Positions 4,378-22,401 of a stretch of DNA of 64,000 bases are shown piece after piece. The notes beneath the pieces are model-generated. The model was not told the DNA's origin, made no database searches, and saw only the letters and a list, made by a program, of their open reading frames with translations. Location: positions 5,292-69,291 of IMG/VR virus record IMGVR_UViG_3300046007_014300, one strand, 5' to 3'. This DNA comes from a virus. Positions within the stretch are counted from its first letter, which is position 1. Each line of letters opens with the position of its first letter. Position numbers and translations under genes: made by a program.

Positions 4378-4674
4378 ATGGCACCAGTGGATTGGAGCAA
4401 ATATCCAGACGACTGGAAAGAGATCGCCCTCAATGTGAAGCGCCAATCGGACTGGGCCTGCGAAGGCTGCAAAACCCAGTGCCGGCGCCCCGGGGAGCCG
4501 TTTGTCACCCACCGGCTGACACTCACGGTCGCTCACATCAACCACATCGAGCACGACTGCCGGCCCGAGAACCTGGTGGCCCTATGCGCACCCTGCCACC
4601 TGCGCTATGACGGTGAGAGGCGCCGGCTGCAAAAGCGAGCGCTGGCACGCATTCAAAACGTAAAACAAACCTAA
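4378..4674 (+). CDS. HNH endonuclease
   Basis: CEGC ... LTVAHINH ... [14 protein letters not shown] zinc-HNH signature. Confidence 0.85.
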
Positions 4675-5567
4675 AATAATGATTCCTGAATGACTTGCTC
4701 ACCATCGTCGATCATGGCCATGCGACGCAGCTTGCCCATTGCCTTGTTGACGATGTTGGAAACCCGATCAGCAGTTGTATCAAGCATCCTGGCGATTTCT
4801 GTTTTAGGCAATTCATTTAGATACAACAGCTCAATTATTTCGGTTTCTTCATCTGATAGAAAAGGGAGCATTGCCGCCAGCCTCTCAAGCTGAAGAGCAT
4901 TTTCCAGCCGATCTTCCTCAATATCGACGCGGCTTTTGGGGCATGGCAAGACCTCTTCTAGGCAGCGCTTCTCATCAGGCAACAGGACTGATGTGCTGCC
5001 GCATTTTTTGGCGCGAGCCCCTATCCGAATGCGTTCCAACTGTTCCATACTTTTTAGCCCTGAAATCTCCAGCAACTCAGCATCCGTAAGCCGATTTGGA
5101 CTGGATGCGATATGGCGCTCGACCCTGAACAGCACCTCCAGCACATTGGTCGGGATGCGAATCGTATCCGCAGTTTCTGCCAGGGCGCGATACATCGCCT
5201 GTCGCACCCACCAATAGGCATAAGTGCCCAGGGTATAACCCTTGGTCGGATCGAACATCTCGACCCCGCGCTGCAAGCCGATTGCCCCCTCCTGGATCAG
5301 ATCCTCAAGGGGGAGGCCCATCCGGCAATACTTTTTGGCGACGGTGACGCACATCCTCATGTTTCCTGTCACCAACCGGTCTCGTGCCCGCATGCCTGCT
5401 CGCCGTATTGCCCCCGGCGCCGCGTCAGGGCCGCCAGGCCAATCCAGCCACTCTCGAACCTGCTGGCCCCTGAGCAGCTGCTCGGTCTTGTTTGGGATCG
5501 GATACCGGCCGAAATCGGCCAGCATGGCGCCGACCATTGATGATCTCTCGCCTGACCTGCTGGCCAT
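4671..5567 (-). CDS. Sigma-70 family RNA polymerase sigma factor (cyanobacterial group-2-like)
   Basis: Region 2 [40 protein letters not shown], region 4 HTH EIARML...[14 protein letters not shown]. Confidence 0.93.
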
Positions 5568-5703: not shown

Positions 5704-7710
5704 TTGGCTACCGACGGAATCGCTTTTGAGGAACGGTTTGACGGGGTATTGGTTAACACCCTGACCAGAATGGGCACCAGTCAGGACAAGGAGCGATACA
5801 CCGGTGTTGCAGCGCCGGAAATTCTGCAACCCGCTGACCTGGACGCTTTATACATAAACAACTGGCTCTGCCGGCGCATTGTCGACATCATCCCGCAGGA
5901 GACCACCAGGGCGGGCTGGGCCCTGACCCTGGGCACGGAAACCACCGATGCTGAGAAAAAGCGGTTTGATCGGCTGGTTGCGGTTGGCGAAGACATGGGG
6001 ATCCGCACCCATGTCAAGAAAGCCATGCGGCAGTCTCGCCTTCATGGTGGCGCGGCGATCATCATGATTTTGGACGACAACACTCCCATCGATGAGCCTG
6101 TCAACCTCAAGAAGCTACGGGCCATCAAGGGGCTACATGCCATGGATTGCCAACGGATTTGGCCGGCAGCGGGCTGGAGCGGTGTAGGCGAACCTGACCT
6201 TTATCAAATGCAAATCAATCGAGATGAAGATTTGCGGAAGATTGGGATGAAAGATCAATTACTGCATGTGCCTATCCATCGCTCAAGGCTGCTGCGTTTT
6301 GAAGGGGACGATGCTCCGTACAGCTACAAAAGTCACTTTAAGTGGTGGGGCATATCCGTATTGCAGTCCGTTTGGAATGTATTCAAGCGCTATGAAACAG
6401 GCCAAGCATCAGCCGCCAACATCCTTAACGATTTCAGCCTTTATGTGCAAAAAATCAAGGGTTTAAAAGGCATGGTTGAGCAAGGGAAAGGCGACTTTGT
6501 GGCCAATCGGTTGTCACTGAACGCGCTGATGCGTTCAGTGATCGGCGGGATCGCCCTGGACGCTGATGGCGAGGAGGCCTCGTTTCTGACCCGTTCGGCC
6601 GCCGGGGTCGATTCGATCATCGAAAGACTCAAGGATGAGGTGCAGGGGGCAAGCCGGATCCCCCATACCAAGCTTTGGGGCAGCTCCCCATCGGGGTTAG
6701 GGGCCACTGGGCAGTCCGAGAAGTCGGATTTTGCGCAGGAAGTTCACATGCTCCAGGAGGACCACCTGGATCGGGCGCTGCGGCAGTACTACGAAACCCT
6801 GGCCGCCTGCTCAACCAATCGGGCAGCAATGGAATTGCCGGAGGATTGGCAGATTGATTTTCACAGCACCATCACCCTTTCCGACCTGGAAGAGGCCGAG
6901 CTACGGGGCAAGGTGGCAACGGCCGACAGCCAGAACATCCAGTCAGGTGTGTTGCAGCCCAACGAAGTGGCCTTGGCGCGTTTTGGCGGGGCCAAGTTCT
7001 CGATGGAAACCACCCTGCTGGACCGCGAGAAGAATGGCGCGATCAAACAGGATCCCCAAAACCTGCCACCACCCACTTTTGGTGGTGACCTGGCCACTCT
7101 GCCCGGCGAGGCCATTGGCCAGGGCCAGGGCCAGCAGCAGGCCCCCCGGGGGGACAGCGGGGACGAACGCGACGACGGTTGCTGCCGCCCCTGCGACGCC
7201 GCCACCGCCAGGGGGAAGCCCGCCACCTGCAACGACGGCGCCGTCGACGGCCAGCAGCAGGCCGATGACCAGCTGGAGGGGTCGTTGCAGGTGGAGGGCT
7301 TTCCCCTCCAGCAAGCGGCGGCCGCCGAGGCCCACGCCAAGGCGATCGCCAGGGCAATCGCGCAGGACAAGCGCCGCAAGGGCCGCGGCCGGCGGCCCGG
7401 GGTACGGGCGGACGGCAGCCGGGTGACCGGTCGGAGGGTGGTGGCCGGCGTGCCAGTTGACGTCCGCATCGATGGCAGCGCCACCCTGGTCGGACCCTAC
7501 GGGCAGGCCCTGGCTCTCGAAGCGGCAGTGGGCTTTGACTGCAGCGGGCTATGGGAGGTGCTCAGCCCAGCCGGCCAATGGACCGCCGTGGTGGGAGTGG
7601 AAGACCAGGCCATGGTGGTGGCCGCCGCCGGCCCGGGTGCCCGGGTGCGCCGCCTCGATGGCATCGACTTGCTGGCGATGGGGGTCCGATGCGACAGCTA
7701 TGAGCCATGA
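5704..7710 (+). CDS. Portal protein (DUF1073 family) with ~200 aa C-terminal extension
   Basis: LYINNWLCRRIVDIIPQETTRAGW, IHRSRLLRF, WGISVL, ASRIPHTKLWGSSPSGL motifs; followed by F-like head gene; TTG start uncertain. Confidence 0.87.
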   Translation: MATDGIAFEERFDGVLVNTLTRMGTSQDKERYTGVAAPEILQPADLDALYINNWLCRRIVDIIPQETTRAGWALTLGTETTDAEKKRFDRLVAVGEDMGIRTHVKKAMRQSRLHGGAAIIMILDDNTPIDEPVNLKKLRAIKGLHAMDCQRIWPAAGWSGVGEPDLYQMQINRDEDLRKIGMKDQLLHVPIHRSRLLRFEGDDAPYSYKSHFKWWGISVLQSVWNVFKRYETGQASAANILNDFSLYVQKIKGLKGMVEQGKGDFVANRLSLNALMRSVIGGIALDADGEEASFLTRSAAGVDSIIERLKDEVQGASRIPHTKLWGSSPSGLGATGQSEKSDFAQEVHMLQEDHLDRALRQYYETLAACSTNRAAMELPEDWQIDFHSTITLSDLEEAELRGKVATADSQNIQSGVLQPNEVALARFGGAKFSMETTLLDREKNGAIKQDPQNLPPPTFGGDLATLPGEAIGQGQGQQQAPRGDSGDERDDGCCRPCDAATARGKPATCNDGAVDGQQQADDQLEGSLQVEGFPLQQAAAAEAHAKAIARAIAQDKRRKGRGRRPGVRADGSRVTGRRVVAGVPVDVRIDGSATLVGPYGQALALEAAVGFDCSGLWEVLSPAGQWTAVVGVEDQAMVVAAAGPGARVRRLDGIDLLAMGVRCDSYEP

Positions 7711-9098
7711 GCATTGACCGTCGGCTGGAGCTCCAGCAGCGGCTAAGCGACGAACTGCGGGGCCTGGAGGATGAAGCGATCGGGCGGATCGGTCGCGTCT
7801 TCGAGGGGGCCCTGCGGGAAACGGTCGCACGCATTTTTGCGCAGCTCGATGGCATCGCCGCCCAACCCGCCTATGACCCAAAGACCACCCCAGGGGCGTT
7901 TTTGGGATCCACCCCCGAGGGGCAGGTATCCATCGATCCGGGTTTGAAGAATCAAGCCCAGCTGATCCTGCAGGGGCAGCTGCTCCAAGATCTGCGCCAG
8001 ATCGTCGATTCGATGCAGCTCTCCCCCCGGCGGATAGAGCGGCTGGAGGCAGAACTGAAAGCCCTGTTCGATCGGGCCCAGGGACTGGGCAGCGAATATG
8101 CCCTCCAGATCACCGGGGCAGAACTCGAGCCCTCCCTGGCGGTGCTCTCCCCTGAGGGGCAGATCGAGCGGCTGCCAGGCCAAGGCCAAGGCCAGGGCCC
8201 CGCACCGATCGAGATGCCATCGGCGCCAGATCGGGGGTACCAGGGTGGGCAACGGTTGAGCCGGCTCTTCGATCTCAGCGGTGCGGTGATCGCGGCGGAA
8301 CGCGATTTCAAGAGCCTGTCCGAGAACTACGCCAAAGAACGTGATGCGGCCTCCGATGAGCACGTCAGGGCGTCAAAGGCTTACTACGCCAAGTGGTGGG
8401 CTGAATGGGGGGAATCGGTGTCATTTGAGACGGCGCGCCAGATGGCCCAGGGCCCCGATCCCCGGGCGCTGAAGGCCAAGCTGCGGGAGAGGATCCCAAC
8501 CATCAACGAGGCCTTCAAAAACCGGGCGGAAACGATCGCCCGCACCGAAACCTTGATGGCATCTGGCGAGGCCCAAGAGCGGATCTACCGCCGGCTGCGG
8601 GTTGGCTTTGTGCAATACCTGGCGACGCTTGATGACCGCACCTGCGAGTTCTGTGCGCCCCGATCCGGCTGCATCTACTGGATTGGTGGGGTGAGAACCC
8701 CGATCCATCCGAACTGCCGCTGCGGCGAGAGCCCGATCACCTTGGAATCGCTGGTGATCCAGAACAGCATGGCGAAATCGCCGGAGCAGACCTGGGAGGC
8801 CGAGTTCCAGGCCCATGCGGCGGCCACCATGGCCTATTTCCGGGCGGCCGCCGGCGCCGATGCGGTGCCCCGGCCGGTCGGTGGGCCCGGGGACATGCGG
8901 GGCACGTCTGCTGACTACCCCTTGATGGAGCGCAAGGGCCTGCCGCAAAGCGTGGCAAGGAAAGCCTTGAGCCAAGATGACCCACTGAACCAGGCCGCGC
9001 GCGATTGGCCAGCTGGTGACCCGGTGTGGTGCCCGCGGCGAGGATGGCTGGACCAGCAGGCCAGGGCGGCCTATGAGGCAATTTTGAGATCGGTTTGA
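7707..9098 (+). CDS. Minor head morphogenesis protein (Mu gpF/SPP1 gp7-like)
   Basis: RAETIARTE, ATLDDRTCEFC, PIHPNCRC motifs; ATGA overlap with portal. Confidence 0.9.
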   Translation: MSIDRRLELQQRLSDELRGLEDEAIGRIGRVFEGALRETVARIFAQLDGIAAQPAYDPKTTPGAFLGSTPEGQVSIDPGLKNQAQLILQGQLLQDLRQIVDSMQLSPRRIERLEAELKALFDRAQGLGSEYALQITGAELEPSLAVLSPEGQIERLPGQGQGQGPAPIEMPSAPDRGYQGGQRLSRLFDLSGAVIAAERDFKSLSENYAKERDAASDEHVRASKAYYAKWWAEWGESVSFETARQMAQGPDPRALKAKLRERIPTINEAFKNRAETIARTETLMASGEAQERIYRRLRVGFVQYLATLDDRTCEFCAPRSGCIYWIGGVRTPIHPNCRCGESPITLESLVIQNSMAKSPEQTWEAEFQAHAAATMAYFRAAAGADAVPRPVGGPGDMRGTSADYPLMERKGLPQSVARKALSQDDPLNQAARDWPAGDPVWCPRRGWLDQQARAAYEAILRSV

Positions 9099-9109
9099 TC
9101 AAGTACCCG

Positions 9110-9361
9110 TCAAGTACCTATCGCTTGAAGAGCAGCATTAGCTCGCTCAATCCATTCCAGTGCATGTGGTACGCAACCTGAGCCGTGAATTGGGCACTCT
9201 GGTATAGCCCTGAAAACTTGTTCGCGGTTTTCAAGCAGCCTATCGGTAATGTCCAGTTGTTCACGCAGGTACAGCGCGCAACGGTGCTGGCCACTTGTAC
9301 CCCTTTGCCATTGATAATTGCAAGTGCTGCATTCCATAAACTTGGAGGAATCGGGTGTCAT
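9110..9361 (-). CDS. Small Cys-containing hypothetical protein
   Basis: ORF with CSTC and CPIHGSGC; start chosen at ATG overlapping the upstream ORF. Confidence 0.5.
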   Translation of the reverse strand: MTPDSSKFMECSTCNYQWQRGTSGQHRCALYLREQLDITDRLLENREQVFRAIPECPIHGSGCVPHALEWIERANAALQAIGT

Positions 9362-9549
9362 TGGGCCTCGTTGGGAGATTGAACCAACCCTGCCCACGGG
9401 CATAACGGGCAGCCGTGCTCTCCGTCGTCGCAGCCGTCTTCAATTGGATCGATCCCGCGAACTAACAGGCCATGGGCGATAGCAGCATCAAGGCAGCGCT
9501 CTTCATTGCCTTGCTCGTGGGAGTCAACATTGTCAGCGGGTTCAATCAT
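9358..9549 (-). CDS. Small hypothetical protein
   Basis: 63 aa ORF, CPLC, ATGA overlap with next gene. Confidence 0.45.
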   Translation of the reverse strand: MIEPADNVDSHEQGNEERCLDAAIAHGLLVRGIDPIEDGCDDGEHGCPLCPWAGLVQSPNEAQ

Positions 9550-9585
9550 GGGCCTTTTTTGTTGAGTAATTAGCGGTGGGTACGA

Positions 9586-9840
9586 TCATGAATGGGCTGT
9601 GAGTTGGGCACGGATAGCCAGCATTTCGGAGCCAAGCGGGCACCAGTCTGGAGTTGTCCAAGATGTATCGCCTACCTCGCGTCTAGCCTTTAAAATCCCC
9701 CAACCGTGCGAAGGATGAGTGCAGTAAATATAAAGTCCGCTATCACCTTGGTGGCAGTAGTAATGTTTTGAGCAGTATCGACACCCATTGCAGGATGCAG
9801 ATATGTGAAGACTGGGTCCATCTCGTAAATCTGGTTCCAT
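9586..9840 (-). CDS. Small Cys-rich hypothetical protein
   Basis: SCNGCRYC ... TPDWCPL motif common in small phage proteins. Confidence 0.55.
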   Translation of the reverse strand: MEPDLRDGPSLHISASCNGCRYCSKHYYCHQGDSGLYIYCTHPSHGWGILKARREVGDTSWTTPDWCPLGSEMLAIRAQLTAHS

Positions 9841-9844
9841 GCTG

Positions 9845-10108
9845 TTAGGTACAAGTATGGGTCAGGTCAGTTACAGCTTCTGCTGCACCGTGTTCCGTAA
9901 ATCGCAGCGATCGGTGACCATGGGGTTGCCAGGTCACCCAGCCCTTTTTCTTCAGCTGGGTCAAATGCTGGTAAATGCTACTCACGGTGGCAATTTCAAG
10001 AGCCTGCGCGAGCTCTTTTAGAGTTGGAGACTGGCCGTGGAGATTCTGGTGTTTGAGGATTGCCAGGGCGACATCGTGCTGGCGGCGGGTTGGTTGCTGT
10101 AGTGCCAT
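9845..10108 (-). CDS. LexA-like N-terminal DNA-binding domain protein (no peptidase domain)
   Basis: PTRRQHDV...GQSPTLKELAQALEIATVSSIYQHLTQLKKKGWV...RSL matches the LexA winged helix. Confidence 0.8.
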   Translation of the reverse strand: MALQQPTRRQHDVALAILKHQNLHGQSPTLKELAQALEIATVSSIYQHLTQLKKKGWVTWQPHGHRSLRFTEHGAAEAVTDLTHTCT

Positions 10109-10211
10109 AAACAAAGTTTCAAACCGCCCACATATTGTACAGGAACATGAATGGCAAAAAAAAGAGCCGCAATGCGACTCTTGGACAATTTCATGTTTGT
10201 GCAAAACCTGT

Positions 10212-10505
10212 TCAGCTGGGTGCCCCAGGAACAGCATCCAGAATTGCATTGATGGCGGCATCCTCCTCAGCATCCTCTGCAACCACAGATTGCAGTTCGG
10301 TCACTTTGGCGTTGGCTGCATCGGCAGCTTCTTGCGCGACAGTTGCGGCAGCTTGTGCGACAGCAATCGTTTCGGCATCGGCAGCATCGTTGGCCAGGGC
10401 AGCGGCTAAGGATGCTTTGGTTTCAGCCAATTCGCTTTTCAAAGCGGCTTCACCACTTTGAAGAAACTGAATGACAGCGTTTACGCGATTAACAAGAGCG
10501 GACAT
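10212..10505 (-). CDS. Ala/acidic coiled-coil hypothetical protein
   Basis: Heptad-like Ala/Glu-rich ORF; ATG at 10505. Confidence 0.55.
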   Translation of the reverse strand: MSALVNRVNAVIQFLQSGEAALKSELAETKASLAAALANDAADAETIAVAQAAATVAQEAADAANAKVTELQSVVAEDAEEDAAINAILDAVPGAPS

Positions 10506-10630
10506 GGTTTTAAGCAAACAAAGGGAACGTTGGTTCATTGCAGTAATGAACCGGTAGAAAGCAAAGTCCATTTACTGGGACCCAGAAGCAGCACGGATGC
10601 GCTGCAACACCATGCTAGGCCAAGAAATCG

Positions 10631-11263
10631 CTAGACCGGATTGGAACGCTTTAGTGCCTCCATTAACTGATTGGTTCGCCACTGCAACCACTTGGCCTCA
10701 TCTTGTAATTGTTGTTCTTCTGTGGGGAACATAACAGCCATGGTTTGGCGACCCTCGCCGCTGATAAGCGCTGTGAGATGCTTGGAGAAATAAAAGCCTC
10801 CATTGCTATCTATCAAGCCCACATACTGCCATGGCTGGCTATCCTTCATTCCGCCTATGCCCACTGGATTAACGCTTACCGCGTCTTCGGAACGACGCTT
10901 GACAAACACCCAACGGCAAACAGCATGCAGCTGAGCTGGCTCACCAGGAGCCACTTCAAACTCTGGGGGGGTTGTGACTCGAATGTGCACAGTTTCGTAA
11001 GTTGGCTGCGACAACAACCAGGCCCAGGGCCCAGCCAGTATCTGAGGCCGCAACTGCCCACTGATTTCCATGGCCAGATAACGCAGCCAGCCCGACTGGG
11101 CTTGGGTCAAGCCTCGTCGCTGTGTGGCCAGCTGCAGGGCAAAGTCCCCAACGTTTTGATTGGCGCGATCGGCGTCAATCACGATCTTGCGAGCTTCGGC
11201 GTCAGTAAGATCGCATTCGAACTCAATGATGCAGCCGTTCTTTTTATGCAGTTGGATTAGCAT
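10631..11263 (-). CDS. Hypothetical protein
   Basis: 210 aa ORF with protein-like composition. Confidence 0.6.
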   Translation of the reverse strand: MLIQLHKKNGCIIEFECDLTDAEARKIVIDADRANQNVGDFALQLATQRRGLTQAQSGWLRYLAMEISGQLRPQILAGPWAWLLSQPTYETVHIRVTTPPEFEVAPGEPAQLHAVCRWVFVKRRSEDAVSVNPVGIGGMKDSQPWQYVGLIDSNGGFYFSKHLTALISGEGRQTMAVMFPTEEQQLQDEAKWLQWRTNQLMEALKRSNPV

Positions 11264-11798
11264 TGGTTCTCAAAGATAAGGGCGCCAAGGCTTCCCTTGG
11301 CGCCATGGGAAAGAAGAAAAATCAGCCTGAGACACCAAATAGCTTTCCATAAAACTCAGTCCTGGCGCAGAATCGGGGCGACACCTCTTTGATGCTGCAA
11401 GATCTGTGCGGCGTCCCGCATCTTCAGGACATGTGGGAACAGGATGGCACCACCTATTAGCAAACTCCAAAGCATTAAGTGATTTCTAAGCAACAAGATA
11501 AACGCCACGATAAAGGAATCGATTCCTTCGAATTGGCGCCTTCTGGATTGGCGTCTTGTTGCCGGCTCGCGAAACTTTTCACTTTGGAGTGATTCAGCAT
11601 TTTCGCTGGTTTTGCAACGACGCAGCCGCCGGCTCTCAGCCAACGCGGTGTTGGGCTCTGGCATGGGTCCAATCAGTAATCGGTCTGGGCTTGTCCAGCA
11701 TACAGGATCTTGGATGGCATGGAAGGGCGCGCCCTGCCGCTGGCGGCAGCCGTGCCCTGGCCGATCGCCTTAGCTTGACCAGACACCAACTGATTCGC

Positions 11799-12107
11799 AT
11801 GATCGAAGAACAATTTGCCCTGAACGCACTCGCCACTTGGGTTCACGCAAACGGGATTCATCAGGTCAGAACCGCATTGGCATTTGCCAATCAAGCGGCC
11901 CAGCAAGAAGACATTGATAGCGATGGTCTGGCGGCCATGTTGTTAGAGGAGGGAGAACGCCTTCGCGATGAGCCCACCCCAAGTGGTGTTACAACCGATC
12001 AGCTTGCTCCAGTGCCAAATCCGGAGCAAGATCCTGACGAGGTAAAGCCTCCACAAACCCAGTCACCGCAAGCGAAAGAGGCAAAGCCTGACAAGAAAAA
12101 TCCGTAA
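11799..12107 (+). CDS. Hypothetical protein
   Basis: ATG at 11799 within the long ORF; heads the plus-strand cluster. Confidence 0.5.
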   Translation: MIEEQFALNALATWVHANGIHQVRTALAFANQAAQQEDIDSDGLAAMLLEEGERLRDEPTPSGVTTDQLAPVPNPEQDPDEVKPPQTQSPQAKEAKPDKKNP

Positions 12108-12125
12108 CATGTTAATCAAGGTTCA

Positions 12126-13100
12126 TTGACACCAAGAGGAACACCAGTGGATGTCAGGCAGGAAACAGCGTCGCTCGTCAAGTCAATCATTGACGAGCTG
12201 ATACATGAAAGTGTTCAACTGCTAACCCTTAACCTAGTTAGGTCAACGGGGCAAATTACAGGCCGCTTCCGTGCTGGACGGTTGGTCTACGACTACAAAA
12301 TTGCTGGTGACAATGTTGCCTATACTCCAATCGGTGGCAGTGAGCGAAAAGATTCAGCCGTTTGTTTAAACTTTAGCAGGGAAACAAGTCAGAGACTGGC
12401 TTCTCGTGCTTATATCATGGGTTTGCGTGATTGGAGTAGCACCCGAGCTGATGCTTGGCTGTGCGCAAAAAGAACTGATGGACCCAAAAAATGTGTAAAG
12501 GGAACAGCGTGTGGCAACAGCTGCATCGCCAATGGCAGAACGTGTCGGATTAAAGGCAATTCTCAAAAATTGACGCAACTAAAAGCTTTACTGGCCTTAC
12601 CGGCAGCAGGGCAAAGTAGTGGTAGTGTTACTAACACCAAGCAAGGGTTTACGAAGAGTCAAACTGGCGGGAAAGTCAAGCCGGAGTCCATAGCCAAACT
12701 AAAAAGTCCTGTACTCAGGTATTGGGATGTAAAAAGCGTGCAGGAACTTGCCCGAAACAAGCTTTTCAAAATGGCAACGGCGGGTGATGAGCTTGATTTT
12801 AAGGACCGTGAGACTTGGGCAAGGTTACATCGTCAGTTTATTGGCGTGCCAAAATCAGAACAAAACCAGCCAGATGGACCAACCGTAATTCGCGGCCTTG
12901 ATGTACTTAAGCAATTCCGTCCATGGTACATATTTGACTTAGATCCAAAAACAGCAACGACTACAGATGTAAAGCGAGCTTTTATACGCTTAGCCAAGAC
13001 TCATCATCCCGACCATGGCGGCAACCCAGAAGTTTTCCAGAGACTCAAGGTAATGCGCGACTCAATGTTGGCATTGATGCCATCTAAAAACGCAAAATGA
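12126..13100 (+). CDS. Leader-module protein with C-terminal DnaJ (J) domain
   Basis: Shared beta domain, CVKGTACGNSCIANGRTC knuckle, C-terminal VKRAFIRLAKTHHPDHGGNPEVF with HPD motif. Confidence 0.8.
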   Translation: MTPRGTPVDVRQETASLVKSIIDELIHESVQLLTLNLVRSTGQITGRFRAGRLVYDYKIAGDNVAYTPIGGSERKDSAVCLNFSRETSQRLASRAYIMGLRDWSSTRADAWLCAKRTDGPKKCVKGTACGNSCIANGRTCRIKGNSQKLTQLKALLALPAAGQSSGSVTNTKQGFTKSQTGGKVKPESIAKLKSPVLRYWDVKSVQELARNKLFKMATAGDELDFKDRETWARLHRQFIGVPKSEQNQPDGPTVIRGLDVLKQFRPWYIFDLDPKTATTTDVKRAFIRLAKTHHPDHGGNPEVFQRLKVMRDSMLALMPSKNAK

Positions 13101-15709: not shown

Positions 15710-15712
15710 GCA

Positions 15713-16873
15713 ATGGCAACCGACGGCCGGCTGGCGCTGCTTGAAACGCGCATGGCCCGCGTAGATGCAGCCCGCGGTAAGCCGTGTGGCAAGAGCTTCA
15801 TCGTTTCGACCTACCGTTGTCACAAGGAAAAAGGTCCAAATCAAAGCACCAAAAGTGCCCCAGTGCTTACCCAGGCGGCCGATGGCGGCATCCTGTTAGA
15901 TGGACGGCCGCCTGAGAAGCAGATCGGCAAAGGATTCTTCGGCGACACATTTCTTTTCCCCCTGGCCGGCGGCGGTAAAGCCGTGGTGAAGGTTGATCGG
16001 ATCAGCAACCGCGACCCCCGCGACGGTCATCCCGACCCATCGCCCGAACATCGGATTAAGGCCCGCAGGCTGATGGTCGAAAACGAAGTGGCAAGCGCCA
16101 AACTGGCTGGCGAACTTGGGGTCTCCCCCAAATTGCTGAGTGAAATGCAAAAGCTGCCCGATGGGAGGTTTGCTTTTGCCTATGAGTTCACCCCCGGCAC
16201 CCCGTTTCAGGAAAACCACCACAGCTATGACCCAACCGCAGATGCGCAACGAATTCTGGGCAAACCGGAGAATATGCGGCGCTATCTCTATGGTGCGGCA
16301 GAAATCAGCAGGAAGCTAGGCGACGCAGGCCTCACCCATGACGATTTCCATGGCGCCAACTTACTGATTCAGGAGGACGGCACCCCAAAACTGCTTGACT
16401 GGGGAATGAGCAGCAGGGGCCCAAAAGGCAACTTCTTTCAGGAGACCACAATGCTTTACATGCTTTCTACCTGGGCCGGAGATCGACGAGGGATGGAAAA
16501 AAACGGCGGCCGGACTGGCAACGCCATCAGCAAAGTTGCTGATGAGGCACAGAAGAGTCTTTACGACGGCGAGAGGGCATCAAAAGATTTCATCACCGAT
16601 CTCAGGGCCGAGCGTTTCCTGGAACTGCCCCAGATTCCAAGCGACCAAATCAGACAGGCAATGATAAAGGCCAATGCCATTCACAGAGCCAACAAAGAGA
16701 AACCAGGTTGGACGTTTAGCGATGCACAAGCGGAAGTTGGTTTGGACGGCAAGATCACTGCCGCCGATCGGAAAGAAGCCGACAAGCGCCGCGATGATAT
16801 TTACGGGCCCCGTGGCCATCGAGCCTTCCGCCGCAAAGTGGATCTGCTGCTCAAACAGTTGGATCAGGTATGA
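15713..16873 (+). CDS. Leader-module protein with protein-kinase-like domain
   Basis: RVDAARGKPCGKSFIVSTYRCHK leader; IGKGFFG glycine loop, AVVK lysine, HDDFHGAN catalytic loop, DWG. Confidence 0.85.
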   Translation: MATDGRLALLETRMARVDAARGKPCGKSFIVSTYRCHKEKGPNQSTKSAPVLTQAADGGILLDGRPPEKQIGKGFFGDTFLFPLAGGGKAVVKVDRISNRDPRDGHPDPSPEHRIKARRLMVENEVASAKLAGELGVSPKLLSEMQKLPDGRFAFAYEFTPGTPFQENHHSYDPTADAQRILGKPENMRRYLYGAAEISRKLGDAGLTHDDFHGANLLIQEDGTPKLLDWGMSSRGPKGNFFQETTMLYMLSTWAGDRRGMEKNGGRTGNAISKVADEAQKSLYDGERASKDFITDLRAERFLELPQIPSDQIRQAMIKANAIHRANKEKPGWTFSDAQAEVGLDGKITAADRKEADKRRDDIYGPRGHRAFRRKVDLLLKQLDQV

Positions 16874-19206
16874 GGTTGGCCATCCCCGAAAGATTGACAT
16901 TTAGCCTGGCCGCCCAGGACGCTAGGGATCAGGGTGACACTGTCACCTACATGAAACTGATGAACCGCCATGCGGCCATCGTGATGGGCCGCCGCAAGCC
17001 ACGATCAGAGATCAGCGGTCGAATTGACAGCACCTGGGATCGCATTGATGCCCTGAAGGCCCGGCTTGATGCCCGGGCGCGATCGGCACCAGGCCAGCTG
17101 GAACTGCTCACCGGTGGCGGAGCGCAAGCAGAACTTCCCCTGGGCGGCACCACCGGCCAGGGGGGCCGCAAGCCAGCAGCGGTAGGCCGGGCCGCCAAGG
17201 CCGCGGCGACCGGCAACAGCAAAGCCGGCAAGCCCTGCGGGGAGTCCCACATCTCGGCGGCCAAGCAGTGCCGCAAAGGGGAGACAGGCGAAAGCCAGGA
17301 AGGCCAGGAAGCTCCAGCTGACAAGCCGGCAGCAGGGCGGAAGGGAGGACGCCCAACAGCACCTGCCGACCCCCGGGAGGGAACCACCGGAGCGGTTGAG
17401 TCTGGTGACTATGAATTCGCCCGAAAATCCGAGGTCCCGAACGCCGGGGAAGACCTGGCCCTATCGGCCCGCCATCGGCGAAACATGTTCTTGGGATTGG
17501 CGGCGGAGGAGGCCGCCGGCACCGCCGAAAAGAACCTCACTCGCGACAACCTGCTCAAGGCCACACCCCATGACCTGATCGCCGGCATGACCCCGGCCAA
17601 CAGCCTGAGCAGCCTTCAGGGTTACCTCACGCTCCAGGCGTTCCCGGCGCGGCCGTACAGCGAAAAGGAACTGGCGGGTTACCAGCGGGCAATGGAACGG
17701 CAGGCGCGGCCAGGGATGCAGTCCACGGCTGTTTCTCCGGAAGGCCTGCGGGAGCAATATCACGATGCGTTTCAGCAGCTCCATGGGCTGGTTCATGCGC
17801 TACAAAAACATGCCGATCCTAATGCCAATCGTTTAGTTATTCTAAAATGGATTAACGATAAGGTTCGAGAGTTACGGCAGCAAACAGGCGACACGTCGTC
17901 TTATGCAATCGGAACAGCAAAAGACCCATACAATCCTGTAGCCAACAGTCTGATTGATTTTTCGCGGCGCATTGGCCGTCGGGGGACTACCTCCGTGCCC
18001 GGGAAGATGGAAGATTTCTCCCGTCGGCTCAAGGCCGCCATGGGCAACGACTTTGGGTCGGCCGAAACCACCTTGGAAAAGGCGAGGGAAATTGCGACCC
18101 GGATCATGGAGGGCAGCAGCTTCAACGAGGCCTTCGGGACCGTCGGCGCCAATGGCAAGCGGCGCTTCAATCCGGCGGATCTCTACGTGGCCCCGGCCAA
18201 TCGCCAAGGGGGCCGCAACGTCGGTGGCTCGACGATTGAGCAGGGCACCGATTTCATTCTCAAGGGATCCGGGTTCCGAGGTCTGCAGTTTGGCAACAGC
18301 GTCAGCGATGACGAGCGCAAGCACCACCTGAAGAAGGCGGCCGAGGCCCTGGCCGACCTGGCCGATGTGACCGGCCTGCCTGATGAAGCCATGGGCTTGA
18401 AGGGTTCTCTGGGCCTGGCCATTGGCGCCAGAGGGCGAGGTGCTGCGCTGGCTCACTTCGAGCCAAAGCTCAAGGTGATCAACCTCACCCGCAAACGGGG
18501 CATCGGCACCCTTTCCCACGAATGGGGCCACGCTCTCGACAACTACCTGGGGCTGAAGGCCGGGGTGGCGGCGAGCAGCGCCCCCAATAGCGACAGGATC
18601 CACCCGGACCACGTTTTCCTCACCAACTCAGGCAAACCGTGGGAGAAGGATCCCAAAAACCCATCCCCGGTGATCGACGCGATGAAGGCCGTGAAAGAGG
18701 CCCATGTCACATCGGGCTTCATGGATCAAGTGGATAAGGAGTCCAGGGGCCTGAAAAGGGCCATGGCCTTCAATGAGGACTACTGGCGTTCGCGGCCAGA
18801 GATGTTCGCTCGATCATTTGAAGCCCACATTGACCGCAAGCTGCAGGCCCTTGGCCGGGCGAACACCTATCTGACGCAGACCCCCGACTCTTTGCTATGG
18901 CCGACTGCTGAGCAGTCCGCAGCAATGGCGCCAGCCTTTGATCGGCTATTGGCCGCCGTGCGCGCAGAGCACTTTGCCGACGCCCCAAAGCGTAATGATG
19001 CAAGGGGTGTCCGCATTGATCGCTTCATGGCCGCCTTGGAACGCAACACGCCTCAGAAGCCGAGAAAGCAGCCAGGGCAAACTGAACCCGAGCAAAAATC
19101 CGAATCTCCCGCCACCGAAGCCCCGATCAACTGGGACAACGTCGCCAGCGAAGTGAAGACCATGCTGGAGCTGGACTCCAAGGATTTAGACGGCGGCACC
19201 GATTAG
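16870..19206 (+). CDS. Leader-module protein with LPD1-like (large polyvalent protein) zincin domain
   Basis: GFRGLQFGN, LGLAIGARG, INLTRKRGIGTLSHEWGHALD (HExxH), YWRSRPEMFARSFE. Confidence 0.8.
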   Translation: MRLAIPERLTFSLAAQDARDQGDTVTYMKLMNRHAAIVMGRRKPRSEISGRIDSTWDRIDALKARLDARARSAPGQLELLTGGGAQAELPLGGTTGQGGRKPAAVGRAAKAAATGNSKAGKPCGESHISAAKQCRKGETGESQEGQEAPADKPAAGRKGGRPTAPADPREGTTGAVESGDYEFARKSEVPNAGEDLALSARHRRNMFLGLAAEEAAGTAEKNLTRDNLLKATPHDLIAGMTPANSLSSLQGYLTLQAFPARPYSEKELAGYQRAMERQARPGMQSTAVSPEGLREQYHDAFQQLHGLVHALQKHADPNANRLVILKWINDKVRELRQQTGDTSSYAIGTAKDPYNPVANSLIDFSRRIGRRGTTSVPGKMEDFSRRLKAAMGNDFGSAETTLEKAREIATRIMEGSSFNEAFGTVGANGKRRFNPADLYVAPANRQGGRNVGGSTIEQGTDFILKGSGFRGLQFGNSVSDDERKHHLKKAAEALADLADVTGLPDEAMGLKGSLGLAIGARGRGAALAHFEPKLKVINLTRKRGIGTLSHEWGHALDNYLGLKAGVAASSAPNSDRIHPDHVFLTNSGKPWEKDPKNPSPVIDAMKAVKEAHVTSGFMDQVDKESRGLKRAMAFNEDYWRSRPEMFARSFEAHIDRKLQALGRANTYLTQTPDSLLWPTAEQSAAMAPAFDRLLAAVRAEHFADAPKRNDARGVRIDRFMAALERNTPQKPRKQPGQTEPEQKSESPATEAPINWDNVASEVKTMLELDSKDLDGGTD
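17209..17243 (+). repeat. Dispersed leader repeat (copy 3)
   Basis: ACCGGCAACAGCAAAGCCGGCAAGCCCTGCGGGGA identical to 15065-15099. Confidence 0.95.
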
Positions 19207-19445
19207 AGGGCCAGCAGGGCATCGGCCGATACCTGCAGCACCTGGCAGATCACCCTGATCTGCGCCGGGGATGCCGAGGCCCTGCCTAGCTCAAGTTTGG
19301 CGATCCAGGGCTGGCCGACACCGGCGCATTCAGCCAGCTGGGCCTGGGTGAGGCCCCGCCGGTGGCGGGCGGTTCGGATGCGGCCGCCCATCTCCCGCCG
19401 GACGTACGGGGCAGGAGGGACCACAAACGGGCGGTCCTCAAACAT
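19203..19445 (-). CDS. XRE-family HTH regulator
   Basis: GGRIRTARHRRGLTQAQLAECAGVGQPWIAKLELG. Confidence 0.88.
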   Translation of the reverse strand: MFEDRPFVVPPAPYVRREMGGRIRTARHRRGLTQAQLAECAGVGQPWIAKLELGRASASPAQIRVICQVLQVSADALLAL

Positions 19446-19516
19446 GCCGATGCGGAATAAAACACGATTCAGGCTAAGGAAACCCGCAGTTTGGTATCTC
19501 ATCCGAACTGGGTGGT

Positions 19517-20839
19517 GTGAGCGAGGAATGGAGGTTTGACCGTGGCGCCATTAGCCCCAACTGGGAGAAAACCCCAGATGGGTTCTTGCGTGTCCGTGGA
19601 ACCTTCAGCCGCGTCGGTTGTCTCTCCTACAAGCGAGCGGACGGCAGCACCCAGGTCGAATATCGCCCGGAAGAAGAGGTTGCTCATCGCGACTCAATTC
19701 TTTCGCTTGGGGGATTGCCCGTCACCCATGAGCATCCCCCAGAGCTGCTGACCCCTGCCAACACTCGGCAGTATCAACGCGGATCGACTGGAACCGAAGT
19801 CAAGTACGACAACGGTTTTGTCAAAGGCGTCGTCATCCTCACAGACGCCGAACTCATCGCCGCCGTTGAACGCGGCGATGCCAGGGAATTGTCGATTGGC
19901 TATCGCGTTCAGATCGATCGCACACCAGGGGTTACGGCCACAGGTGAGCAATACGACGCGATCCAGCGACGCATCGTGGGAAACCATTTGGCGGTGACCA
20001 GGGAAGGCCGATCTGGGTCTGAGGTCCGCTTGCACATGGATTCCGCATTCTCGATCGATCCACCACCCCCCTCTCCGCCATCACCCCCCCCCTTGGAGGC
20101 CCATGAAATGACCACGGCTGTTGCAGCACTGTCCAGCGCCACCGCGACCTTGGCCACCGCCCTGGCGGGCCAAAGCCGCTCGGATGGCAAGCAACGCTCC
20201 ATGCCCATCCAGGAAATGGCGATGGATCCTGAAGATGACCCCGACGGCGACCCCGAGGAAACCTCTGACGAGGAGGGCATGGAACCCGACGAAATGCAAA
20301 AGCCCAAAAAGCCGATGGCCAGGCGTCGCCGTAGTGACAGCGTGGTGTCACGGCAGGAATACGAGCGGGTGGTGACCGCGCTGGCTGACAGCGAGCGGGC
20401 ACACCAGACGGATCTCGGCCGGATGGATGCGATCAGCGAACGGCTCGCCGAACTGGAAGCAGATCTGGACACCAGGCTCGATTCCAGCGAGATCGATCTC
20501 GATGCGCTGGTCACCGAAAAGCTGGAGCTGCTGGAGCGGGCCAATGAATTGGCCGGTGAACGAATCGACCATTCCGGCCTATCGCCGCGACAACTGCAAC
20601 TGGAAGCAATGCAGAAATCGGGTGTGGCGATCGAGCGCTTCGATAGTAAATCCGACGAATACGTGGCCGCGGCATTCGACACCTACTGCGATGCCAACAC
20701 CAGCCCCAACCGCCTGGACCACTCATCCGCTCTGGAGCTCCTGCTTGGCAAAACTTCGGGAGAGACCACTTCGGATCCCCGCGAAGGATATAAACAACGG
20801 CTTGAAAGTGCTTCTCGACAACCGTTGGCCAGCAACTGA
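19517..20839 (+). CDS. DUF2213 protein (putative prohead protease + scaffold)
   Basis: TPDGFL, PVTHEHP, ELSIGY, NHLAVTREGRSG; acidic coiled-coil C-terminal half; upstream of capsid genes. Confidence 0.88.
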   Translation: MSEEWRFDRGAISPNWEKTPDGFLRVRGTFSRVGCLSYKRADGSTQVEYRPEEEVAHRDSILSLGGLPVTHEHPPELLTPANTRQYQRGSTGTEVKYDNGFVKGVVILTDAELIAAVERGDARELSIGYRVQIDRTPGVTATGEQYDAIQRRIVGNHLAVTREGRSGSEVRLHMDSAFSIDPPPPSPPSPPPLEAHEMTTAVAALSSATATLATALAGQSRSDGKQRSMPIQEMAMDPEDDPDGDPEETSDEEGMEPDEMQKPKKPMARRRRSDSVVSRQEYERVVTALADSERAHQTDLGRMDAISERLAELEADLDTRLDSSEIDLDALVTEKLELLERANELAGERIDHSGLSPRQLQLEAMQKSGVAIERFDSKSDEYVAAAFDTYCDANTSPNRLDHSSALELLLGKTSGETTSDPREGYKQRLESASRQPLASN

Positions 20840-20875
20840 CAAATCTTTAGTTATCTGTCCTCTCGCTAACTGACC

Positions 20876-21433
20876 ATGGCCTTGATCGTTACTCCAAATG
20901 CAAGCTCCGTTGATGACGGGGCCCAGATTGCGTACCCTCTGGCTGCCGATCGCGGCCTCCCGGGCCAAATCGCCGACCTAACTGAGGCGGCGATTCGTGC
21001 GGGGCACAATGAAACTGCAGCCCGGATTCCGTTTGGGATTCCGGTGAGGCTGAACGGTTCTGGACTTCTCAACAACAGCTGTACTCCCCTCACGGCCGCC
21101 GGCGCCATATTGGGGCTCACTGCCCGGACTGCAGTCGCCGAACGCGATGGCCCCTCCGGTGCCTACGCCGATGGCATCCCGATTGGTGCCGCCGTCAACA
21201 TCCTCACCCGCGGGCCCATCTACCTGGAGGTGATTGAAGCCGTGGCAGTGACCGACAGCCTGCGCTACTTCAAGTCAGGTCCGAATGCCGGGAAGTGGGG
21301 CAAGACAGCATCCGCTGGCAATTCGCTGCTCCTGACCGCTGGTAACTGGGCGATTCGCAAGGCCGGCGCCGTAGGGACCGTCCTGCTTCTGGAAATCAAC
21401 ACCCCAGCGGCAATGAGTTTCACAGCCGACTGA
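20876..21433 (+). CDS. Capsid decoration/cement protein
   Basis: PGQIAD, IPFGIPV, VNILTRGPIY motifs; between DUF2213 and capsid. Confidence 0.7.
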   Translation: MALIVTPNASSVDDGAQIAYPLAADRGLPGQIADLTEAAIRAGHNETAARIPFGIPVRLNGSGLLNNSCTPLTAAGAILGLTARTAVAERDGPSGAYADGIPIGAAVNILTRGPIYLEVIEAVAVTDSLRYFKSGPNAGKWGKTASAGNSLLLTAGNWAIRKAGAVGTVLLLEINTPAAMSFTAD

Positions 21434-21468
21434 TCACCGTTCAAGCCCAAACCTCGCCAATCATCACC

Positions 21469-22401
21469 ATGGCCATTCGCAACGACGCCCAGGCCGCAGC
21501 TGGAGCTTTTCTGCAACAAGAACTGCGGCACAAACTTGCTAAAGCCTATGAAAAAGAATACCCCGAGATTGTTTATAGCAAAATCTTGCCTGTCAGCTTT
21601 GAGGTTCCGGAAGGAGCGGAAACTTATACTTACGATCTATGGGATCGTGTCGGTGAGATGGATCTCATCAGCGACAGCGGTGATGATCTGCCCACCTCAG
21701 ATGTTAAACGAGGTGAGGTGATTAACCCGATCCGCCAGTATGGCACTTCTTTTAGATACACTACCGAAGAGATCCGGAAGGCTCAATTTGCTGGTATAAG
21801 CTTGGATCAGCGTAAGGCTGATGCCGCTCGATCGGCGTATGAAGAGCGTGCCAATCGAGTTGCCCTTTTTGGACAAGCCGGCACCGGTCTTAAAGGGTTC
21901 TTTAACCATCCAGCCGTAGACAGGCTGGTGATCACCGGCAGTGCCACCGACGGGTGGTTTGATGCCGCAAACATCACCCCTGACCAAATGGTTGCAATCT
22001 TAAATGAACCAGTAACCTATCAAGGTAACGTGTCGAACCAGGTGGAAGCCGCAGACACCTTGTTGTTGCCTTATACCGACCATCGCAAGGTGGCTACCAC
22101 CAAGATGGGGACGTACGATTCCATGACCGTCCTTGACTTTTTCTTGAAATGTAACCCGCAAATCAAGCGGGTTATGGCAATCAACGAGTTGGACCCAAGC
22201 AAATCGTTCGGCAATCTCAGCGCAAAGCGGATGGTGCTATACAAATATTCCGAAGAAAAAGTGAAATTCATGATTTCCATGGCTCTTAAGTTTTTGCCGC
22301 CCCAGCCCGTAAATCTGGCCTTCAAGGTGCCAGCCGAAGCCAAATTTGCCGGCGTTGCTGCTTTCTTCCCCAAATCGATTACCTACGTCGATAAAGGCTG
22401 A
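21469..22401 (+). CDS. Major capsid protein (DUF2184-type, HK97 fold)
   Basis: 310 aa; FLQQEL, AYEKEYPE, DDLP, NRVALFG..GLKGFFNHP, C-terminal PKSITYVD. Confidence 0.88.
   Translation: MAIRNDAQAAAGAFLQQELRHKLAKAYEKEYPEIVYSKILPVSFEVPEGAETYTYDLWDRVGEMDLISDSGDDLPTSDVKRGEVINPIRQYGTSFRYTTEEIRKAQFAGISLDQRKADAARSAYEERANRVALFGQAGTGLKGFFNHPAVDRLVITGSATDGWFDAANITPDQMVAILNEPVTYQGNVSNQVEAADTLLLPYTDHRKVATTKMGTYDSMTVLDFFLKCNPQIKRVMAINELDPSKSFGNLSAKRMVLYKYSEEKVKFMISMALKFLPPQPVNLAFKVPAEAKFAGVAAFFPKSITYVDKG

Follow-up and report, generated by a model that had tools for sequence, protein, structure and literature searches.

What does a four-residue pattern, Arg-x-Asp followed by Ala, Gly or Ser (R-x-D-[AGS]), do in the head proteins of a phage, and is it the code by which the head-maturation protease chooses where to cut? 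The question arises in a 64,000-nucleotide stretch of the IMG/VR virus record IMGVR_UViG_3300046007_014300 (hereafter the window), which runs from position 5,292 to position 69,291 of a single contig of 69,291 base pairs and is the 64-kilobase (kb) bulk of a 69.3-kb cyanosiphovirus-like phage genome with a full tailed-phage structural module. The nearest named phage is the Synechococcus siphovirus S-CBS4, with 42% identity in the protease–scaffold protein and 44% in the capsid protein. An earlier, sequence-only reading of the window had counted the motif by eye and proposed that a DUF2213 protease cuts at it, removing the scaffold, trimming the capsid and portal proteins and releasing effectors from a family of large proteins that share a leader (the leader-family proteins). 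Here we show that the motif is enriched in the portal and DUF2213 proteins, that the enrichment is replicated across DUF2213 homologues, that the tripeptide stands just before the N-terminal arm (N-arm) of the capsid protein, and that the DUF2213 domain has the fold of a prohead protease. On this evidence the DUF2213 protease probably cuts at R-x-D-[AGS] in the prohead, with the scaffold and the capsid protein, and more tentatively the portal extension and the candidate leader-family cargo, as its substrates.

A motif concentrated in head proteins

Each protein was compared with 20,000 composition-preserving shuffles of itself. The portal protein (668 amino acids, 5704-7710, + strand; Phage_portal_3, PF06381, E = 1.4e-64, core at approximately residues 46-409) carries 7 R-x-D-[AGS] sites against 1.03 expected, and the protease–scaffold fusion (DUF2213, PF09979; 440 amino acids, 19517-20839, + strand) carries 7 against 0.80; none of the 20,000 shuffles reached 7 in either case. 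The counts made by eye were exact for both proteins, including the six portal sites in the C-terminal extension and the three additional tripeptides of the DUF2213 protein (RFDR, RIDH and RLDH). Because the portal extension is rich in Arg, Asp and Gly, it was also shuffled separately, as was the scaffold half of the DUF2213 protein (50,000 shuffles each): residues 471-668 of the portal hold 6 sites against 0.58 expected, a count that no shuffle reached, and residues 181-440 of the DUF2213 protein hold 5 against 0.50, reached by 7 of the 50,000.

Tail proteins are without enrichment, so that the contrast between head and tail that the sequence-only reading had expected over shuffled controls is borne out. 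Of the 14 tail-region proteins, 13 have no copy of the motif, and none occurs in the large terminase (139-1629, − strand). The tape measure protein (1,533 amino acids, 26900-31501, + strand), which lies among the tail genes and serves as a control within the genome, has a single RLDA at residue 866 (1 against 1.17 expected, p = 0.70), just as had been noticed by eye. Concentration in head proteins nevertheless holds only in part. It is carried by the portal and DUF2213 proteins, whereas the MuF-like protein (7707-9098; 0 against 0.65) and the cement protein (Phage_cement, 20876-21433; 0 against 0.14) have no site, and the capsid protein (1 against 0.21) and the leader-family proteins g15713 (1 against 0.66) and g2201 (2 against 0.88) are unremarkable singly. 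Enrichment is moderate in g12126 (3 against 0.35, p = 0.0046) and g16870 (4 against 1.15, p = 0.027) and is not significant in g13097 taken by itself (3 against 1.02, p = 0.08).

A genome-wide count, based on a rough gene call of 58 genes plus two added by hand, gives the same division. Portal, protease and capsid proteins together have 15 sites against 2.02 expected (Poisson 4.6e-9) and the six leader-family genes have 19 against 5.27 (Poisson 2.9e-6), whereas the other 51 called genes (13,575 amino acids) have 4 against 11.55, which is below expectation. In these 51 genes the tripeptide R-x-D is also scarce (29 against 43.9; Poisson P for so few = 0.011), either because the motif of the protease is avoided, perhaps, or because proteins in general have few such tripeptides.

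Could residue composition, or a motif picked with hindsight, have produced the pattern? The motif was defined by eye after the proteins had been read, and Arg, Asp, Ala, Gly and Ser are all common residues in a genome with 59% G+C. As a control for post hoc choice, we ranked all 400 pairs of residues separated by one position. The pair R.D ranked first of 400 in the portal and protease proteins (18 against 7.0, z = 4.6), sixth in nine head-region proteins (34 against 22.0) and 395th in the 14 tail proteins (8 against 15.6). The shuffles, this ranking and the genome-wide counts lead us to reject composition and post hoc selection, and an explanation of this kind is very improbable given that the motif also recurs in S-CBS4, in every homologue listed below and, with Lys, in the AT-richer phages T1 and TLS. 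The codons at the sites vary (CGC, CGT, CGG, CGA, AGG and AGA for Arg; GAT and GAC for Asp). The signal therefore lies at the level of protein and is not a DNA word, which rules out a DNA-level explanation.

A predicted protease fused to its own scaffold

The product of 19517-20839 matches the PF09979 profile over residues 17-172 (141.5 bits; cut-off 22) and the PHROG 530 family, 'head maturation protease' (E = 7.9e-76). It consists of a DUF2213 protease domain (approximately residues 1-161), a disordered linker rich in acidic residues and Pro, and a helical scaffold (approximately residues 279-434). In an AlphaFold2 model built from 70 sequences, the predicted local distance difference test score exceeds 90 for residues 1-160, residues 164-198 and 220-274 are disordered, and the scaffold forms helices at 279-322, 328-346, 357-367, 380-395, 402-414 and 421-434. 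The top three Foldseek matches in the PDB are chains of the T4 gp21 protease (5jbl; E = 1.9e-5 to 5.9e-5, probability 1.00), with a template modelling (TM) score to the target of 0.60-0.63 at approximately 10% sequence identity; the herpesvirus proteases of pseudorabies virus and Epstein–Barr virus stand lower in the same list. A sequence search of the PDB with the same protein gave no match at E values up to 1. Residues H73, S126 and H157 are invariant across the 70 homologues and are the putative catalytic residues. On the model, the protein is a predicted serine-type prohead protease with the fold of T4 gp21 and herpesvirus assemblin, fused to its own scaffold.

We infer that this protease would recognise Arg at the third position before the cut (P3) and Asp directly before it (P1), with a preference for Ala, Ser or Gly directly after it (P1′), and that it would act in the assembled prohead. 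Cutting of the scaffold is well supported by inference and ranks second in support among the consequences of such a code: the linker and scaffold half would be cut at about seven places, and the pieces could then leave the shell. The sites concerned, all on the + strand, are RSDG (residue 221, 20177-20188) and RSDS (272, 20330-20341) in the disordered linker of the model, RMDA (302, 20420-20431) in the middle of a helix, RFDS (374, 20636-20647) in a short helix, and RLDS (320, 20474-20485), RIDH (349, 20561-20572) and RLDH (399, 20711-20722) at helix ends or in loops. In an alignment of 24 homologues they occupy conserved columns, with some gain and loss.

Three further sites on the same strand, RFDR (residue 6, 19532-19543), RADG (40, 19634-19645) and RGDA (119, 19871-19882), fit this scheme less well. 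They belong to the folded protease domain, where the model places them with high confidence in strands, turns or helix ends, and conservation of R6, D8, D42, G43, R119 and D121 among the 70 homologues is 90% or more; the protease–scaffold proteins of T1 and TLS likewise begin ..QRFDS. Such well-folded, conserved positions may be structural, which weighs against counting every occurrence of the motif as a cut site, and the three sites could be either structural or used in self-processing. A predicted complex of protease residues 1-165 (with alignment) and capsid residues 1-45 scored 0.01 against a mark of 0.32, and counts neither way.

The capsid N terminus

The best-supported consequence of the proposed code concerns the major capsid protein (310 amino acids, HK97 fold family, 21469-22401, + strand; PF09950, E = 6.7e-52). 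Position 21469 is the first start codon of its open frame, and the protein begins MAIRNDA, as the sequence-only reading had stated. Cleavage at RNDA (21478-21489, + strand) would fall after Asp6 and remove the six-residue propeptide MAIRND. In a HMMER alignment, residues 3-12 of this protein (IRNDAQAAAG) pair with residues 23-32 of T1 gp47 (VKQDAAATMG). The cryo-electron microscopy model of gp47 spans residues 27 to 319, according to the available text of the T1 paper (PMC11945409), and in the sequence record residue 27 is the Ala directly after K24-Q25-D26. For phage TLS, the available text reports that the capsid protein of the virion has the Edman N terminus ASDMGIW (PMC11447400). This string starts at residue 28 of the deposited TLS capsid protein (TLS 15087-16061), directly after K25-N26-D27. 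A cut after K-x-D in a homologue of the capsid protein has thus been shown by others.

The position is general. Among 61 distinct capsid N termini, drawn from 91 loci, R-x-D stands just before the N-arm in all 61 (as K-x-D in T1 and TLS), and the propeptides that it would delimit are 3 to approximately 33 residues long. The tripeptide is conserved, follows a leader of variable length and is absent from the mature protein in the single measured case, and therefore behaves like a recognition site. For the capsid protein, a cut at this position has good indirect support.

Several observations count against a simple version of this view. The TLS authors surmise that 45 residues are removed (PMC11447400, available text), at odds with the 27 given by mapping the Edman string, on which we rely here; and the T1 model could start at residue 27 because of disorder instead of cleavage. 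A propeptide of six residues is very short. The residue after Asp at the capsid site is Ala, Asn, Asp, Ser, Thr or Glu across relatives, so the small residue is a preference and the four-letter motif is not strict; in this respect the sequence-only reading, which took the last position to be Ala, Gly or Ser, was too narrow. Finally, 65 capsid sequences contain 66 R-x-D against 65.8 expected and 9 R-x-D-[AGS] against 13.8, without clear depletion. Sequence by itself therefore cannot decide where a cut is made, and accessibility must matter.

The proposal that the DUF2213 protease cuts at R-x-D accordingly keeps its core, through the capsid position, the TLS and T1 N termini, the gp21 fold and the 120 homologues described below, and loses the strictness of its fourth letter. 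Homologues of the cement protein differ from the capsid proteins in their counts: 62 related sequences have 4 R-x-D against 16.2 expected and no R-x-D-[AGS] against 5.4. The N-terminal tryptic peptides of the Rogue1 capsid protein were unseen, according to the available text of that paper (PMC3496638); the available text of the Pam3 (PMC9942802) and Pa193 (PMC11456595) papers holds nothing usable on the capsid N terminus or the protease; and no paper on S-CBS4 was among those that our search for its virion proteomics listed.

Reach across DUF2213 phages

The enrichment is replicated well beyond the window. The S-CBS4 protease–scaffold protein, 42% identical, has 5 sites against 0.52 expected (p = 0.0004); the S-CBS4 portal is unremarkable (2 against 0.71). 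A homologue search in 5.8 billion proteins listed 120 protease–scaffold homologues, from 98% down to 32% identity. All 120 lie above expectation, with a summed count of 1,064 against 103.2, approximately ten-fold, a sum that overstates independence because homologues share ancestry. The 68 distinct protease–scaffold proteins from viral contigs have 421 against 48.2, and the signal persists at 32% identity.

The scaffold halves of 70 homologues define the site more closely. Two positions before Asp, no common residue is more enriched than Arg (4.1-fold), the middle position of R.D sites favours Leu, Phe, Ile and Ser, and Ala, Ser or Gly follows the Asp at 426 of 552 R.D sites. The protease–scaffold proteins of T1 and TLS contain 11 and 12 matches to [RK]xD[AGS] against 1.1 expected (0 of 4,000 shuffles each), using K-x-D-[AGS], with Lys for Arg, in genomes that are AT-richer. 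Among more distant DUF2213 phages, basic-x-Asp enrichment is also present in CL131 (5 against 0.88) and Listeria phage B054 (4 against 1.01).

The basic residue has a limited reach within the family. We found no enrichment of [RK]xD[AGS] in the scaffolds of Pam3, Klebsiella phage RCIP0093, FP_Brigit, Silvergun, Vibrio phage K168 or RHEph04, which speaks against Arg or Lys at P3 as a general DUF2213 code. These six phages nevertheless keep the second half of the site: Asp-Ala still stands just before the capsid N-arm in Pam3, RCIP0093, Brigit, Silvergun and RHEph04, and Asp-Gly does so in Vibrio K168. The pair D[AGS] is enriched in the scaffolds of K168 (16 against 7.07), Silvergun (15 against 5.82) and B054 (14 against 5.28). 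Judging from the sequences of 11 phages, Asp at P1 may be family-wide, with the basic P3 limited to a subgroup of DUF2213 phages.

The portal extension

The six sites of the portal extension (approximately 200 residues, residues 471-668, 7114-7710, + strand) are RGDS (residue 482, 7147-7158), RDDG (489, 7168-7179), which is directly followed by a Cys-rich knuckle, RADG (568, 7405-7416), RIDG (588, 7465-7476), RLDG (650, 7651-7662) and RCDS (662, 7687-7698), all on the + strand. The extension has only a weak DUF6894 match, below the cut-off. In a relative that is 83% identical over this region (L006), six of six sites are kept, with the middle residue changed at one. The C terminus of a portal protein faces the capsid interior, and for this reason trimming is plausible. 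The extension, which would project into the prohead, would be trimmed or fragmented, the third consequence in order of support; the plausibility of trimming derives from the enrichment and applies to this lineage, given that the portal extensions of other lineages are unrelated and have 0-3 sites, a point against a general role. Extensions of the S-CBS4 type have no such motif.

The seventh portal site, RFDG (residue 11, 5734-5745, + strand), is of another kind, a conserved N-terminal one. R-x-D-G, once R-x-D-S, occurs at portal residues 11-12 or thereabouts in 16 of 26 cyanophage-group stretches; the remaining 10 are truncated or aligned later, and every stretch that reaches the N terminus carries the motif. 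The portals of T1 and TLS have K-x-D-G near the N terminus, and overall, with 15 viral contigs among the sources, a basic-x-Asp motif lies approximately 5-22 residues from the portal N terminus. This basic-x-Asp-Gly may mark one more site of cutting, or it may have a structural role. In the Pa193 portal, the first 93 residues were unseen and may be cleaved, according to the available text (PMC11456595).

Leader-family proteins as candidate cargo

Six proteins of the window, all encoded on the + strand, belong to the leader family; two of them, g2201 and g60210, lie beyond positions 5704-22401, the interval that the sequence-only reading had marked. Four of them (g2201, g13097, g15713 and g60210) start with a helix that ends in R-x-D-[AG] at residues 14-25. 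In g2201 (474 amino acids, 2201-3625) the helix ends in RIDA (2240-2251), and RGDS (residue 451, 3551-3562) lies 24 residues from the C terminus. The kinase-like g15713 (386 amino acids, 15713-16873; Pfam APH above the cut-off at E = 6.7e-6, Pkinase and ABC1 below it) has helix-RVDA (15758-15769) and, two residues later, a GKPCG knuckle. The larger g13097 (870 amino acids, 13097-15709) combines helix-RLDG (13169-13180), RVDG (13346-13357) and RLDF (13448-13459), ahead of a Cys knuckle, with a PHROG 21 domain (residues 245-564) and a second full leader that runs from RLDA (residue 607, 14915-14926) on a module boundary. The fourth, g60210 (732 amino acids, 60210-62408), lies approximately 38 kb from the head cluster and still has 6 R-x-D-[AGS] against 1.24 expected: helix-RLDA (60249-60260) is followed by RKDG, RQDA, RMDS, RRDA and RDDG, these five later sites falling at junctions before a P-loop kinase domain of the Zeta_toxin type at the C terminus (residues 522-681; PF06414, E = 5.4e-26). 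It has two Cys knuckles, and RMDS precedes a Cys knuckle by seven residues.

The two remaining proteins carry the motif elsewhere. In g12126 (324 amino acids, 12126-13100) the sites are RKDS (12345-12356), RADA (12444-12455) and RTDG (12471-12482), the last of them five residues before a Cys knuckle; the C terminus is J-domain-like, with a DnaJ match below the cut-off. In g16870 (778 amino acids, 16870-19206) a heptad-spaced series RIDS/RIDA/RLDA (17020-17073) is followed by a knuckle, a zincin-like string HEWGH at approximately residue 560, an LPD1 domain (PF18796, E = 1.9e-11) and RNDA at residue 708 of 778 (18991-19002). This RNDA and the RGDS of g2201 had both been read correctly.

Throughout the window R-x-D precedes every Cys/His knuckle. 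The distance from motif to knuckle ranges from 1 to approximately 55 residues. In the lineage of the window, R-x-D occurs within 70 residues upstream of 8 of 8 GKPCG knuckles, compared with 15.7% of control positions; in distant lineages it occurs within 15 residues upstream of 11 of 12 distinct GKPCG knuckles, compared with 4.5% of control positions in the same frames. An IMG/VR contig of a 96% relative (L010) shows these junctions in another state. Its g16870 homologue runs past the equivalent of RNDA into units of leader, knuckle and module, forming a fused frame of 1,567 amino acids with three GKPCG knuckles; the R-x-D junctions are therefore points at which one strain joins modules that another keeps apart.

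If the code also operates on these proteins, their leader helices and inter-module junctions would be clipped, the fourth consequence in order of support. Clipping would free pre-packaged enzymes (kinase-like, Zeta-toxin-like, ParB-type, J-domain-like and zincin/LPD1), much as the internal proteins of T4 lose their capsid-targeting sequences. Release of cargo in this way is plausible, and we infer its packaging, as we do all of the cuts in this phage.

A different division of labour was weighed, in which DUF2213 cuts the capsid and scaffold only, and the leader-family proteins are processed by the zincin-like g16870 or stay unprocessed, R-x-D being part of the knuckle module. HEWGH and LPD1 do occur together in g16870, and zincin-like metallopeptidases have been proposed as processors of polyvalent proteins, of which they are the commonest domain (PMC5512222, available text). 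R-x-D and the knuckle keep company in 20 of 20 distinct contexts, which common descent would give as well, and g2201 and g15713 lack enrichment of their own. Yet the same code is found in the capsid and scaffold proteins of T1 and TLS, phages without polyvalent proteins; the leader-family group is enriched beyond its knuckle-adjacent sites (19 against 5.27); and the motif at the helix end, at residues 14-25 in four of the six, has the geometry of a T4-type targeting propeptide. A search of g16870 for Pfam peptidase families gave no match at E values up to 0.1, and from its sequence the HEWGH protein is a candidate for a second enzyme that would process the cargo. We regard this division of labour as unlikely, and prefer cutting of the leaders by the DUF2213 protease.

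The leaders resemble the scaffold in one respect. A heptad-spaced pair, R-x-D-A-x-x-x-R-x-D-[AS], is common to the central scaffold helix of homologues and to cargo leaders of the window and its relatives, so that the leader resembles a scaffold segment that has been copied. In the window, the regions concerned are 20420-20485 and 17020-17073. At the level of sequence, the pair agrees with leaders that would join the scaffold during assembly and be clipped afterwards.

The same pair can be read without proteolysis: R-x-D-[AGS] would be an assembly or binding motif through which scaffold helices oligomerise or grip the capsid protein and which leaders copy, with R-x-D at the capsid N terminus as the partner contact and any cleavage taking place elsewhere. 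Tandem sites seven residues apart, in homologue scaffolds and cargo leaders alike, are what such a motif might look like, and RMDA at residue 302 of the DUF2213 protein is in mid-helix in the model. Against this, the capsid protein in TLS virions lacks the K-x-D: by Edman degradation it begins with the residue that follows the tripeptide. Sites also fall in the disordered linker (residues 221 and 272) and in the non-helical portal extension, the spacing between motif and knuckle varies widely, and the strong preference for a small residue behind the Asp is what a protease subsite would typically show. Moreover, a motif can serve for binding as well as for cutting, as T4 targeting sequences do. 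Binding without cutting is improbable, slightly more so than processing of the cargo by the zincin, and we retain the reading of the motif as a cleavage site.

A bolder proposal, which we hold tentatively and consider somewhat less probable than its negation, is that R-x-D, the scaffold-mimicking leader helix and the Cys/His knuckle act jointly as a portable tag for address and release: any enzyme module with the tag, of the types named above, would co-assemble with the scaffold in the prohead, be clipped by the head protease and be injected with the DNA. If so, the portal extension would be one more tagged cargo, cyanosiphoviruses would swap effector modules at the junctions, with the protease code as the grammar of an arsenal delivered from the head, and the wider DUF2213 family would be Asp-specific as the gp21 family is Glu-specific.

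Comparison with known systems

Motif-directed proteolysis in the prohead is an established idea, and the system described here would be a counterpart of T4 head maturation that uses another code. In T4, gp21 cleaves after L/I-x-E, reduces the scaffold protein gp22 to fragments, removes capsid-targeting sequences of 10-19 residues from internal proteins and carries its own motif near its N terminus (PMC9026906, available text). The T4 set of gp21, gp22, IPI-III and Alt, as well as phiKZ gp175 and SPN3US gp245, shares with this phage the protease fold and a very short motif with an acidic P1, and the N-terminal motif of gp21 is paralleled in the DUF2213 protein by R-F-D, which is near-invariant at residues 6-8. 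The differences are that T4 has Glu at P1 and a hydrophobic or small P3 where this phage has Asp at P1 and a basic P3; that protease and scaffold form one polypeptide here; and that the proposed leaders of this phage resemble part of the scaffold helix and come with a Cys/His knuckle, with some of the cargo in multi-module polyproteins.

A second comparison is with the T1-like coliphages (Drexlerviridae). They have the same gene order (portal, MuF-like, protease–scaffold, cement or decoration, capsid), and T1 (protease–scaffold 12620-13732, capsid gp47) and TLS (gp33 and gp36) likewise have DUF2213 fused to a helical scaffold, a PF09950 capsid protein and a homologous capsid maturation site, measured by Edman degradation in TLS. 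In T1 and TLS, by contrast, P3 is Lys, the capsid propeptide has 26-27 residues as opposed to 6, the portal lacks a long extension, and the head cluster is devoid of leader-family or polyvalent cargo genes. A preprint describes the T1-like homologue as a protease at the N terminus joined to a helical scaffold at the C terminus; it gives no motif and makes no mention of cleavage (bioRxiv 10.1101/2023.05.21.541620). We found no cleavage rule for the DUF2213 family stated in the literature that we searched, which did not take in the T1 genome paper (PubMed 14972552).

The leader-family proteins are also comparable to polyvalent proteins, including DarA and DdrB of phage P1: both are multi-domain candidate early effectors encoded beside head genes, g16870 has LPD1 and an HExxH motif, and the available text expects proteolytic processing of polyvalent proteins before or during packaging (PMC5512222). 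Their own zincins were proposed there as the processors, whereas the junctions in this phage carry the prohead-protease motif. In addition, the effectors of this phage are split over six leader-sharing genes in place of one giant protein; the 96% relative does have the fused frame of 1,567 residues.

Significance

Detailed knowledge of short-motif prohead proteases is confined to T4 and the giant phiKZ-like phages. Well over 1,000 sequenced phages rely on the DUF2213 family (1,391 records matched), among them T1-like coliphages, many Klebsiella and Vibrio phages and cyanophages. Under a rule of a basic residue, any residue and Asp, with the cut before a small residue, the mature capsid and portal proteins and the scaffold fragments would be predictable from sequence, and head-packaged cargo could be spotted in uncultured phages. 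The rule also points to a tag with which foreign proteins might be loaded into capsids of the T1 type or of cyanophages.

Gene layout

The head genes follow the portal gene in the order described for the T1-like phages. A sigma-70-type gene (4671-5567, − strand) lies between the terminase and portal genes, on the strand opposite to the portal gene, and the MuF-like gene follows the portal gene. The run of large leader-family genes (12126-19206, + strand) separates the MuF-like gene from the protease–scaffold gene, directly after which comes the cement gene, with the capsid gene and then the tail genes beyond it. The interval from the MuF-like gene to g12126 (approximately 9100-12100) has a lower G+C content (0.53 at 10001-12000) and contains weakly scoring open frames on both strands.

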